The notes under the pieces were generated by a model. That model saw nothing but the letters and a program-made list of their open reading frames with translations. It was not told the origin of the DNA and did no database searches. This document shows, piece by piece, positions 5,352 through 13,408 of a stretch of 64,000 nt of DNA; positions within the stretch are counted from its first letter, which is position 1, and each line of letters begins with the position of its first letter. The stretch lies in NCBI GenBank assembly GCA_017445475.1, contig JAFSUB010000001.1, positions 14,834 to 78,833 of the forward strand, in the 5' to 3' direction. This DNA comes from Alphaproteobacteria bacterium (GTDB taxonomy: Bacteria > Pseudomonadota > Alphaproteobacteria > RF32 > CAG-239). A program made the translations under genes and the position numbers.

Positions 5352-7151
5352 TTATTTTCTTCTTAAAAATGAGGGAATATCCAAGTTTTCAAAATCTTCG
5401 TTTGAAAAATCTGTTTGTCCGGCCTCATTTGAAAAGCGAGGGGCTTCGTTTTGCACAGATACACCCCGCGCCAAAGTGCTTTCTTTGCGGTTTTTACGTG
5501 CACGCGAAATGCCCAAAATCTTGTCGATAAACTTTGTTTTTGAAGGTGTTTCGGGCACAATTTCTTCCGGTGCCGGTTCTTGGCTTTCCTGCACAAAAAC
5601 GGGTTCACTTTGCTCGGGGAACAACATCAAATCGTCATCTAAATTGTTGATGGTTGTTTGGGGTGAAAAGATGTCTTTTTCTTCGGGAAGAAAATCTTCA
5701 ATAGATTTTTCAGTGTCGTCAAAATGCTCGCTTGTTCCGGTTTTGTTGATGATGGCATTAAACAAAGAGGAAGCTTGCGGCATTTCGGGAATGCTTTGTG
5801 ATTTTTCAAGCTCATCAAAATCTTCAAAATCATTGCTCTCTTCCGGCTCTTGAACAATTTGAGCTTCTTGATGCGCTAAAAGAGGTTCTTGTGTCAAGTT
5901 CTCATCTTGGGCGTTGTCCTCAAGGGGCTCTGCTGCCTCAACACTTTCAATTGCCTCTTCAGATTGCACGTCGGTGTTGTTTTCGGCAACGTCTTCATTT
6001 GCCGCAGAATTGGCCGAAAAGCGCTCAAGATTATAGTCAATGTCTTGGCTGTCGATGGCAAAATTGCTGTCTTCTTTTGAAGGGGCATAACTTTCTTCAA
6101 TGTAAGAAGCCGTGCTCGGCTCTTTTTCTTGTCTGCGCGAACCCGGACGGCCCTCAATACCCGTAACAACAATTGAAACACGAATTTTGCCGTCAAGCGA
6201 ATTGTCAAAACTTGAGCCGAAAATAATGTTTGCGTCTTCATCAACCTCTTCTTTAATGATGTTTGCCGCCTCGTCAATTTCAAGAAGCGTAATGTCGTTT
6301 CCACCCGTAATATTAATCAAAACACCTTTTGCCCCTTTCATTGAACAATCGTCCAAAAGCGGGTTTGACAATGCTTGTTCGGCCGCGATTCTTGCGCGAT
6401 TCTCACCTTCGGCTTCACCTGTGCCCATAATGGCTTTGCCTTTGTCTTCCATAATGCTTTTAATGTCGGCAAAATCAAGGTTAATCAGCCCCGGCATCAT
6501 CATTAAATCGGTAATCGAACGCACGCCGGAATACAAAACATTGTCCGCCATAATAAATGCGTCAGCCAGCGTGGTGTTTTTGTCGGCGATTCGAAACAGG
6601 TTTTGATTGGGAATAATGATGATGCTGTCAACTTCTTTAATGAATTTTTCAACGGCCTCATCGGCTGTTTCCATACGTTTTTTGCCTTCAAAAGCAAAAG
6701 GTTTTGTAACCACACCGACGGTTAAAATGCCTTTTTGTTTTGCAATTTTTGCAACAACCGGTGCTGCACCCGAGCCTGTTCCGCCGCCCATGCCGGCCGT
6801 GATGAACACCATATTCGAACCTTCGAGTTCTCTTTCAATCTCACTTTGAGCTTCTTCCGCGGCCATTTTGCCGACTTCCGGCCTTGCACCGGCGCCAAGT
6901 CCGCGCGTAATTTCCAAACCGAGCTGTATTTTGCGGCTGGCTGTCGAATGTGCCAAAGCCTGCGAATCGGTGTTTGCCACAATAAAGTCGACACCTTCCA
7001 GATTTTTCGCAATCATATTGTTGACGGCATTGCCCCCACCTCCGCCGACACCGATAACGGAAATACGAGGTTTCAATTGGGTGATTGGCGTATCGGCAAC
7101 AGCTAGATTAATCGACATATTCAAAAAACTCCTAAAAAACGATTGTTTCAA
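5352..7151 (-). CDS. ftsZ: cell division protein FtsZ (599 aa, long acidic C-terminal linker)
   Basis: Tubulin signature [11 protein letters not shown]7 loop, conserved C-terminal peptide DIPSFLRRK; ~250-aa E/D/Q-rich linker. Confidence 0.95.
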
Positions 7152-7217
7152 ACATTGTTTCTATTTTAGGGCAAATAAATTAAGGTTTGGTTACCAAGAA
7201 GGCAAAAACAGAAGATT

Positions 7218-8480
7218 TTAAAAATTTTGTTTAAACCAGCCCAAAATCTTCTTAAAACCGCCCATATTTGAAAGGCTTATGGGGTTTGAAGTTGTTGAGG
7301 ACGGTCGATATTCCTTGCAGTTGATGGCAAACAAAAGCATACCGAGGGCAGTTGCATATTTCGGGTCATAAAGATAGTTCGGAATGTTGGGAATGTTGCG
7401 CGGAATGCCCAAGCGAACTTGCTTGTTTAATATGAGTGCAGCCACATCTCTGATGCCCGAAAGCGCGCTTGAGCCGCCCGTTAAAACAACACGATGGTTT
7501 GCAACATCTTTTAAGCCCTGTTCGTCAAGCTTTTGTGAAACCATCTCAAAAATTTCTTCAACGCGCGGGGCAATAATGTTGATGAGGTCCGATTTCGGAA
7601 CCTGCCGTATCGAATTGTCGTCTTCTTCGCCAACCGGATATACATCAATGCTTTTAAGCTCGTCCTGCGAAATTAAAAAGGCGCATCCATGCCTGATTTT
7701 TAAGTCTTCTGCATGCGCAAAAGAAGTTGTCAGCCCCCACGCGATGTCGTTTGTGATGTTGTTTCCGCCGACAGGAAGGGTTGCAAAATGGACAGGAAAG
7801 CCGTTTTTGAAGGTGGTTAAACTTGTTGTTCCGCCGCCGATATCAACAACCGTTGCACCAAGTTCTTTTTCGTCTTCAACAAGACAGGCCAGCGCAGATG
7901 CGTAGCCCGAAAAAGTCTTTAAGGCAATTTCAAGATGGGCGTTTTCAATGATGTTGGCTAAATTTTTGTAAAGCAGCTGCGGATAAAAGCCGTAAAGCAT
8001 ATCAATGCCAAGCGTTTCGGCATAAAAACCATGCGGATCTTTAATGATTTCTTTATCGTCAATGGTATAGTTTAAGGGCACACAGTGCACAATTTCCATT
8101 TCAGGCAGCTTTATTTTGGAATATCCCTGCGCTTTGAGCTTTTCGATGTCCAAATCCGAAACGGGCCTGTTTTTGTGCAGCTGAATGATGTTGTTTCTCA
8201 CGACACTTGTCGTTTTGTCGCCGGATATATTCACAATCAGGCTGTTAATGCGTTCTTTGGCGCGCTGTTCTGCATCTTCAACGGCGTTGCAAACGGAAAG
8301 GGTAGCTTGGTTAATGTCTGTAATCACACCGTTTTTAATGCCTTTTGAAGCATTATAGCCGTAACCGACAATTTCAATCTTTTTATCACGCGGGGTGATG
8401 TGTGCAATCAAACAACACACTTTGGACGAACCGATATCCAAAGTTGCCAAAGTTGAAGGCCTTGAAAAAGAATGATTCAC
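7218..8480 (-). CDS. ftsA: cell division protein FtsA
   Basis: Actin-like ATPase: DIGSSKV, VDIGGGTT, LTGGSS motifs; immediately upstream of ftsZ. Confidence 0.9.
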   Translation of the reverse strand: MNHSFSRPSTLATLDIGSSKVCCLIAHITPRDKKIEIVGYGYNASKGIKNGVITDINQATLSVCNAVEDAEQRAKERINSLIVNISGDKTTSVVRNNIIQLHKNRPVSDLDIEKLKAQGYSKIKLPEMEIVHCVPLNYTIDDKEIIKDPHGFYAETLGIDMLYGFYPQLLYKNLANIIENAHLEIALKTFSGYASALACLVEDEKELGATVVDIGGGTTSLTTFKNGFPVHFATLPVGGNNITNDIAWGLTTSFAHAEDLKIRHGCAFLISQDELKSIDVYPVGEEDDNSIRQVPKSDLINIIAPRVEEIFEMVSQKLDEQGLKDVANHRVVLTGGSSALSGIRDVAALILNKQVRLGIPRNIPNIPNYLYDPKYATALGMLLFAINCKEYRPSSTTSNPISLSNMGGFKKILGWFKQNF

Positions 8481-12454: not shown

Positions 12455-12544
12455 TACAAATCTTCCTTGAAGTTCAAACCAATAATGAAAGAAGATAAGT
12501 CAAAATATTAAAATAAGTCTTAAAATCACCGCTTTTATTTTGAT

Positions 12545-13408
12545 TTAAGAAGCTATTTTTTTATTTTTGTTTGTGAGAATATTAAGAATTTTTGCAAGCT
12601 CTTCTTTTAGGTTTTGGCGCTCAAGAACAACATCAACCATGCCATGCGTTTGCAAATATTCGGCCTGCTGAAAATTTTCGGGCAGTTTTTCTCTGATGGT
12701 TTGCTCAATCACGCGCTGTCCGGCAAACCCGATTAGGCTGTCTTTTTCGGCAATATTCACATCTCCGAGCATGGCAAACGAAGCAGAAACACCACCTGTC
12801 GTCGGGTCTGCCAAAACCGAAATAAAAGGAATACCTTTTTCTTTGAGCAAATGAATGGCAGCAACGGTTCGTGCCATCTGCATCAGTGAAAGAATACCTT
12901 CCTGCATTCTTGCGCCGCCTGAAGATGCAATTGTTACAAACGGTGCTTTGTTTTTCAAAGAAAGTTCTGCGGCCTTAACAATGCCTTCGCCGACAACGGT
13001 TCCCATTGAGCCGCCCATAAATGTAAAATCCATAATGGCACAAACAACATCAACACCGCCGATTTTTCCGGTTGCAATTTTTAAGGCATCTTTGCTTTCG
13101 GCCAATTTCCGATTGGTTTTAAGCCGCTCTGTGTATTTTTGCGAATCGCGAAATTTAAGTGGATCATCTTGCATTAAAGGCAAATCAATAAGCGTATATT
13201 TTTCATCGTCAAAAAGCATTTTGAGGCGCTTGTCGACATAAAGCCGCAGATGATAACCGCATGAAGTGCAAACGTAAAGCGACTTTTTGAGCTCTTTTGA
13301 AAACAACATCTGATTACATTTCGGGCATTTCACCCACATATTGTTTGCAATCTCTTTGGGCGTTGTTTTTTGAATTTTCGGGCGGACAATATTGATAAAC
13401 CAATTCAT
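12545..13408 (-). CDS. accD: acetyl-CoA carboxylase carboxyltransferase beta subunit
   Basis: N-terminal Cys4 zinc finger CPKC...CTSC and carboxyltransferase domain (FMGGSMG). Confidence 0.9.
   Translation of the reverse strand: MNWFINIVRPKIQKTTPKEIANNMWVKCPKCNQMLFSKELKKSLYVCTSCGYHLRLYVDKRLKMLFDDEKYTLIDLPLMQDDPLKFRDSQKYTERLKTNRKLAESKDALKIATGKIGGVDVVCAIMDFTFMGGSMGTVVGEGIVKAAELSLKNKAPFVTIASSGGARMQEGILSLMQMARTVAAIHLLKEKGIPFISVLADPTTGGVSASFAMLGDVNIAEKDSLIGFAGQRVIEQTIREKLPENFQQAEYLQTHGMVDVVLERQNLKEELAKILNILTNKNKKIAS

Follow-up and report, generated by a model that had tools for sequence, protein, structure and literature searches.

The division and cell wall (dcw) cluster ranks among the most strongly conserved gene arrangements of bacteria, and the locus described here has a short form of it. 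The locus lies in a 64 kb stretch of alphaproteobacterial DNA from a metagenome contig (hereafter the window, that is, the whole stretch that was analysed), in which mraY, ftsW, murB, ftsQ, ftsA and ftsZ form a short block preceded by accD. An earlier reading of the sequence (the original prediction) had noted that murD, murG, murC and ddl were missing from this cluster, and had proposed that the missing mur genes were either relocated or given up in a streamlined wall pathway. Our results make it highly probable that this region represents a short dcw cluster, conserved in and specific to a lineage of gut and rumen Alphaproteobacteria, which was dismantled stepwise and whose ligase genes were most likely moved and not lost.

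Gene content and organization of the short block

The seven genes, in the order in which they are read, are the following:

12545-13408, minus strand: accD, acetyl-CoA carboxylase carboxyltransferase beta (TIGR00515, 376.5 bits against a cut-off of 317)
11402-12454, minus strand: mraY, phospho-MurNAc-pentapeptide translocase (TIGR00445, 344.7 bits against a cut-off of 192), which opens the conserved short block
10262-11398, minus strand: ftsW, SEDS family (TIGR02614, 326 bits; Pfam FTSW_RODA_SPOVE over its full length)
9340-10248, minus strand: murB, UDP-N-acetylmuramate dehydrogenase (NF010480, 349.5 bits against a cut-off of 259; FAD_binding_4 and MurB_C domains)
8486-9373, minus strand: ftsQ (Pfam POTRA_1 and FtsQ_DivIB_C, each above its gathering score)
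7218-8480, minus strand: ftsA (TIGR01174, 327.9 bits against a cut-off of 176)
5352-7151, minus strand: ftsZ (TIGR00065, 411 bits against a cut-off of 295), the last gene of the block

The order accD-mraY-ftsW-murB-ftsQ-ftsA-ftsZ and its coordinates, as originally proposed, were borne out by these profile matches. Because all seven proteins were of normal size and the matches spanned them from end to end, no gene fusions are present; in particular, the ORF (open reading frame) check agreed with the earlier view that ftsW is not a fused murD-ftsW gene. The ftsW assignment deserves some comment, as its score was just below the TIGR02614 cut-off (337.5 bits), with 221 bits for the RodA model. The window FtsW was 51% identical to Terasakiella FtsW in tblastn, and relatives carry a separate rodA adjoining pbp2. 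Cluster position and orthology to canonical ftsW support the predicted identity of ORF 10262-11398 as FtsW. For FtsQ, the E. coli-type NCBIfam model gave a weak match. Alignment of MraY with E. coli MraY (8g01) showed that the GFVDDY, NLSDGLDGLA, FMGDTGSLALG and MAPIHHHFE motifs are kept, and the catalytic DD, DGLDG, GD and HHH motifs all align. The sole cytoplasmic precursor enzyme that remains in the block is MurB.

The genes are separated by 90 bp (accD-mraY), 3 bp (mraY-ftsW), 13 bp (ftsW-murB), 5 bp (ftsQ-ftsA) and 66 bp (ftsA-ftsZ), while ftsQ begins within murB, sharing 34 nt with it if the GTG at 9373 is the start codon and 1 nt (TAATG) if it is the ATG at 9340. The ORF coordinates thus reproduced the two short gaps and the overlap that had been pointed out before, and with such tiny gaps and normal gene lengths there is no room for murD, murG, murC or ddl. 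The ATG at 9340 suggests a 284-residue FtsQ, not the 295-residue product of the longest ORF, and translational coupling of murB and ftsQ. The murB stop codon and this candidate ATG together form the TAATG at 9338-9342, with the stretch GGGGAAAAAGG just before it. Public gene calls on the same contig match the window ORFs except for slightly shorter starts, and agree with the likely starts of FtsW (ATG 11392, 376 residues), FtsA (TTG 8450, 410 residues) and FtsZ (ATG 7118, with AGGAG before it, 588 residues).

From mraY to ftsZ, the block comprises six genes on one strand within ~7.1 kb, with gaps of at most 66 bp, and is followed by 414 bp of non-coding sequence. On account of the gaps of 3-66 bp and the murB-ftsQ overlap, its genes are probably transcribed together, with translational coupling for part of them. 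Such an operon would co-express MurB with MraY (lipid I formation), FtsW (septal glycan polymerase) and the proteins of the early divisome (FtsQ, FtsA and FtsZ), and the soluble ligase steps would presumably be expressed from other loci.

Comparison with the canonical cluster

As the canonical reference we used the Terasakiella cluster L032 (L numbers designate the loci compared in this study), whose genes were verified one at a time against NCBIfam models and which has the order mraZ-rsmH-(ftsL)-ftsI-murE-murF-mraY-murD-ftsW-murG-murC-murB-ddl-ftsQ-ftsA-ftsZ-lpxC. The genes kept in the window have the same relative order, orientation and families as in canonical alphaproteobacterial dcw clusters (Terasakiella L031/L032, Parvibaculum and Sneathiella), and the window FtsZ shares with them the alphaproteobacterial long linker and C-terminal peptide. 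However, the window cluster is without 10 of the 16 genes (mraZ, rsmH, ftsL, ftsI, murE, murF, murD, murG, murC and ddl) and without the neighbouring lpxC. Instead of the canonical 5' module mraZ-rsmH-ftsL-ftsI, it has accD, a small membrane protein gene and tsaB upstream, and its block of ~7.1 kb compares with ~18 kb from mraZ to ftsZ in L032. In the window FtsZ, the GTPase core is joined to the C-terminal DIPSFLRRK peptide by an acidic, low-complexity linker of ~230 residues.

Distribution of the short block

To place the window among its relatives, its FtsW was searched against one genome per species, which gave 80 loci for the synteny survey. The closest FtsW relatives (53-80% identity) were all metagenome-assembled genomes (MAGs) of uncultured Alphaproteobacteria from rumen, faeces, mouse gut or human gut, and more distant matches came from free-living Terasakiella, Sneathiella, Parvibaculum and Rhodospirillaceae. 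The proposed origin of the window from a host-associated alphaproteobacterium is consistent with these gut, rumen and faecal MAGs being its nearest relatives. The short block mraY-ftsW-(murG)-murB-ftsQ-ftsA-ftsZ was present at all gut, rumen or faecal MAG loci (33 out of 33), and no Mur ligase, mraZ, rsmH, ftsI or lpxC was found within ±10 kb at any of these 33. The synteny comparison over related taxa that had been proposed for this cluster thus revealed a clade-wide, and apparently stepwise-derived, short block that the original prediction had not seen.

Two forms of the block could be distinguished. In one of them murG lies between ftsW and murB (for example, L005, L009, L015 and the human-gut contigs L099-L133). 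This sister form belongs to the same clade, and its cluster, too, is without murC, murD, ddl and the 5' module; in the window's subclade, however, there is a clean 13-bp ftsW-murB junction. The form without murG was found in the window, L001-4, L007, L013, L018, L021, L023, L026, L028 and L029. A metagenome scan with a gut-clade MurG as the query, in which matches share exact 8-residue peptides and the best 80 were kept, added at least 52 further gut-type contigs, including human-gut contigs of 320-484 kb. All of these had murG in the cluster, in the order mraY-ftsW-murG-murB-ftsQAZ.

Among free-living loci that span the relevant junctions, the canonical order was observed in all but four (L049, L062, L071 and L080). 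The cluster is without murD in the Emcibacter-like L049, L062 and L071, and without both murD and ddl in L080 (JBFXJJ010000017.1, 1-21095). As in the window, ligase genes are gone from the cluster in these four loci and the remaining order is kept; they retain mraZ to murF, murG and murC, however, and are much less eroded. Individual ligase genes thus appear to have left the cluster repeatedly in Alphaproteobacteria.

Altogether, the short block was seen in ~85 independent assemblies from various studies and hosts (~33 species-representative MAGs and 52 metagenome contigs). Its flanks vary by lineage (accD; ackA-pta-ndk and a permease; an RND efflux pump; a DHFR-like gene) and the block stays constant, so that the block itself is the conserved unit. 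As previously noted, accD and not murF precedes mraY in the window. This arrangement is confined to the window and L001, its closest relative, and the accD-mraY junction appears to be recent, lineage-specific and outside the conserved feature. The literature on dcw synteny that we found provided general background only, and no paper on the short block in gut Alphaproteobacteria was found.

It should be noted that the window comes from a metagenome assembly and that the starts of its longest ORFs differ slightly from those of the public gene calls. A misassembled or chimeric contig, or wrong ORF calls such as an overlooked murD-ftsW fusion, might therefore be suspected. The probability of such an artefact appears to be negligible, considering that the gene order and the tight junctions recur across the ~85 assemblies, that the same proteins occur in another assembly made from this sample (Logan SRR12529377), and that protein lengths are normal with end-to-end profile matches.

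Phylogeny and the order of gene departures

We built a neighbour-joining tree from concatenated MraY, FtsW, MurB, FtsA and FtsZ (66 taxa, 1735 columns, 100 bootstraps). The groups relevant to the history of the cluster were recovered as follows:

Gut clade: bootstrap 100
Gut clade with L080: bootstrap 100
Subclade without murG: bootstrap 93
Subclade with murG: bootstrap 87
Window with L001: bootstrap 100

The state without murG is derived, because the ftsW-murG junction is present in every outgroup. The most parsimonious reading of the tree together with the synteny is a stepwise history. First, murD and ddl would have left the cluster, a state still shown by the sister lineage L080. Second, in the ancestor of the gut clade, the mraZ-to-murF module and murC would have left, resulting in mraY-ftsW-murG-murB-ftsQ-ftsA-ftsZ. 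Third, murG would also have left in the window's subclade. Finally, in the lineage of the window and L001, a rearrangement would have placed tsaB, the small membrane protein gene and accD upstream. Since L049, L062 and L071 are not sister to the gut clade and L080, the departure of murD in these Emcibacter-like organisms may have been an event independent of that in the gut clade.

Genes absent from the cluster and its surroundings

The window was searched by tblastn with Terasakiella proteins, with hidden Markov models (HMMs), each based on as many as 65 orthologues of the gene in question, and by Pfam and NCBIfam scans of its ORFs. None of these searches found murC, murD, murE, murF, murG, ddl, ftsI, rsmH, mraZ or lpxC in the 64 kb, and the reported absence of murD, murG, murC and ddl from the cluster is thus upheld. 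Weak murC, murD and murG HMM matches on the murB and ftsW ORFs were rejected as artefacts: the profiles had been made from stop-to-stop ORFs, which extend into adjacent genes. The parent scaffold (ERZ28653690 scaffold_901, 100,215 bp, metagenome) allowed us to extend the view by ~8.6 kb on each side, and the Pfam-annotated genes in the resulting ~81 kb included no Mur ligase, murG, ddl, ftsI, rsmH, mraZ or lpxC families. Neither a Mur ligase nor mraZ, rsmH or lpxC was found in ~1.35 Mb of gut-clade loci. This sequence consists mostly of repeated neighbourhoods (±10 kb around two anchor genes), and because the same two neighbourhoods were sampled again and again, the absence is weak evidence for relocation and loss alike.

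The region beyond ftsZ also differs from the canonical arrangement. In canonical alphaproteobacterial loci that extend far enough, lpxC follows ftsZ. Nowhere in the gut clade was lpxC found downstream of ftsZ, an observation that covers the ftsZ-downstream sequence and involved no search for lpxC elsewhere. In the window, the gene after the 414-bp gap encodes a type II/IV secretion ATPase (T2SSE, 3615-4937, minus strand).

Relocation of ddl and fate of the other wall genes

In L015, ddl was found 2.7 kb past ftsZ. A search with its product gave ~8000 homologues; the best 120 were 61-94% identical, and the few named ones among them came from gut MAGs. We examined four diverse gut-clade Ddl neighbourhoods, and all four (4/4) had the arrangement U32 peptidase(-)-DUF3108(-)|ddl-miaA-mreB-mreC-mreD-pbp2(mrdA)-rodA, with no Mur ligase among their genes:

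L081-L084 and L169-L172, ~7750-17400: ddl-miaA-mreBCD-pbp2-rodA block, with the divergent U32 peptidase and DUF3108 genes upstream

The same ddl context is present in L015 (17517-20680) and L008. In these relatives, ddl thus stands first in the elongasome operon and was relocated rather than lost, and the D-Ala-D-Ala ligase is linked to the elongation operon and not to the division cluster. The rod-shape machinery genes for MreBCD, PBP2 and RodA are retained in relatives. Gut Ddl is 42-48% identical to canonical Ddl. Likewise, gut-clade MurG is 36-45% identical to canonical alphaproteobacterial MurG, and L080 MurG is 36-40% identical to gut-clade MurG, no closer to the gut clade than to other Alphaproteobacteria.

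Of the two options, the proposal that the missing mur genes were relocated is the favoured one, as ddl lies in the elongasome block of relatives and murG is still in the cluster of the sister subclade. For the remaining genes the argument comes from the pathway. The substrate of MraY requires MurC to MurF, and the product of Ddl is used only by MurF. Based on this pathway logic, the intact MraY and the other retained genes, we infer that murC, murD, murE, murF and ftsI, as well as murG in the window's subclade, are encoded elsewhere and that wall synthesis is complete. One of the retained genes lies outside the block:

24729-26432, minus strand: murJ, lipid II flippase (TIGR01695, 391 bits against a cut-off of 235.6)

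The presence of murJ, as judged from this profile match, indicates that the organism has kept the lipid II pathway, and the earlier observation that mraY, murB, ftsW and murJ are all kept proved correct.

Several points weigh against the picture of a conserved operon whose missing genes have moved. No murC, murD, murE, murF or ftsI of the clade, and no relocated murG for the window's subclade, was found in the sequence sampled. The relocation of ddl was seen in relatives and not in the window's own genome, and the only one of these loci assigned to a subclade, L015, belongs to that with murG. The tree was made from the cluster's own proteins by a distance method (neighbour joining) only. In addition, a scan for consensus promoters and terminators gave counts at the level of shuffled sequence, and the operon structure was deduced from spacing alone.

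The same absences could be read as a streamlined or partial wall pathway, in which the Mur ligases (and MurG in one subclade) have been lost as in some obligate intracellular bacteria. Neither the window, the ~81 kb of its parent contig nor the ~1.35 Mb of clade loci contains a Mur ligase or a murG outside the cluster form described above, and the metagenome scan offered no relocated murG for the subclade without it. However, almost all of the sampled sequence represents the same neighbourhoods (±10 kb, two anchors), which says little for genomes of this size. Furthermore, the catalytic motifs of MraY are complete; MurB, FtsW and MurJ are full-length, with scores above the equivalog cut-offs or, for FtsW, near it; YceG is encoded on the parent scaffold, just beyond the window; and relatives retain Ddl, MreBCD, PBP2 and RodA. 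From what is known of the pathway, D-Ala-D-Ala would be useless without MurF, and MraY would have no substrate without MurC to MurF. This second option of the original prediction thus found no support, and we consider it highly unlikely. The reduced genome that had been suggested along with it was not evident either, as many PAS sensor kinases, phosphotransferase system (PTS) components, pilus genes and a 3772-residue adhesin are encoded in the window or on its contig. Such colonisation-type surface structures (adhesin and pilins) argue against a strongly reduced genome.

For murG, it is also conceivable that in the subclade without it another glycosyltransferase took over the function and the gene did not move. 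For this subclade, murG was seen neither in the cluster nor in any other sequence that was covered. All gut-clade matches of the metagenome scan were in-cluster, with no stand-alone relocated murG among the best 80, and the matches fell from in-cluster gut-clade MurG (48-72% identity) directly to canonical clusters of other bacteria (at most 38%). An alternative lipid II synthase has been reported (PMC8092295) and would be a precedent. On the other hand, the scan requires exact 8-residue peptides from one query and kept the best 80 matches, so that a diverged, relocated murG would be easily missed, and no candidate substitute gene adjoins the cluster. Functional replacement of MurG is regarded as highly improbable, and relocation remains the preferred explanation for murG as for the ligase genes. 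The radical version, in which the subclade really has neither MurG nor the ligases, is very unlikely.

Neighbouring genes in the window and on the contig

Two co-oriented genes upstream of accD are shared only with L001:

13429-13860, minus strand: 143-residue protein, no family match
14219-14875, minus strand: tsaB (TIGR03725 match)

The 143-residue protein gave nothing in the Pfam and NCBIfam profile scans. Its N-terminal part has two hydrophobic stretches, the tail that follows is charged and rich in Lys and Glu, and its gene lies directly upstream of accD, as in L001. We presume a resemblance to LapA-like proteins (DUF1049), which makes it a candidate only.

Other genes of the window and the contig relate to signalling and the cell surface:

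14976-17500: 546-residue multi-PAS protein with no kinase domain detected, then an overlapping 295-residue ORF with no family match
22192-23817: PAS histidine kinase, adjoining a Bax-like (glucosaminidase-related) protein and murJ
31633-33195, minus strand: PIG-L deacetylase-domain protein
33843-34463: bundlin/PilS-type pilin
44273-48017, plus strand: envelope glycosylation run, comprising a PMT_2 (ArnT-like) glycosyltransferase, a GT2 glycosyltransferase and a YdjC-GtrA fusion
L085:1-3817 (contig ~83.8-95 kb): YadA-like autotransporter adhesin, 3772 residues, just past the window end on the same scaffold

Further bundlin/PilS-type pilin genes are located near the adhesin gene.

Implications for the evolution of the dcw cluster

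It has been reported that dcw gene order is conserved especially in Gram-negative rods and eroded in other morphologies, and the order has been argued to reflect how a Mur enzyme complex assembles and how wall synthesis is coupled to division (PMC10214165). That dcw order is not universal is already known from bacteria that are non-rods or Gram-positive, whose dcw clusters are fragmented, and the short block is like these in that respect. However, the gut clade is Gram-negative and its relatives have MreBCD, PBP2 and RodA, which places it in the very group said to conserve the order (PMC10214165), and its erosion has specifically taken every ATP-dependent ligase.

A more far-reaching interpretation would be that this lineage rewired the coupling between wall synthesis and division. 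Stripping of murC, murD, murE, murF, ddl and the MraZ-controlled 5' module would have left an operon of 'membrane steps plus divisome', with ddl joined to the elongasome operon and precursor synthesis no longer co-regulated with division. We offer this idea tentatively, as it is rather less than probable at present. If true, the lineage would be a natural counter-example to both the 'genomic channelling' and the 'gene order follows shape' ideas, which are summarised in PMC10214165.

Since every protein here is a typical representative of a family already known, the finding is one of genome organization and not of new biochemistry. By its synteny, the short block offers a simple way to recognise this uncultured lineage and to tell its subclades apart, and the large and abundant gut and rumen clade that carries it represents a natural experiment on which dcw adjacencies are truly constrained.

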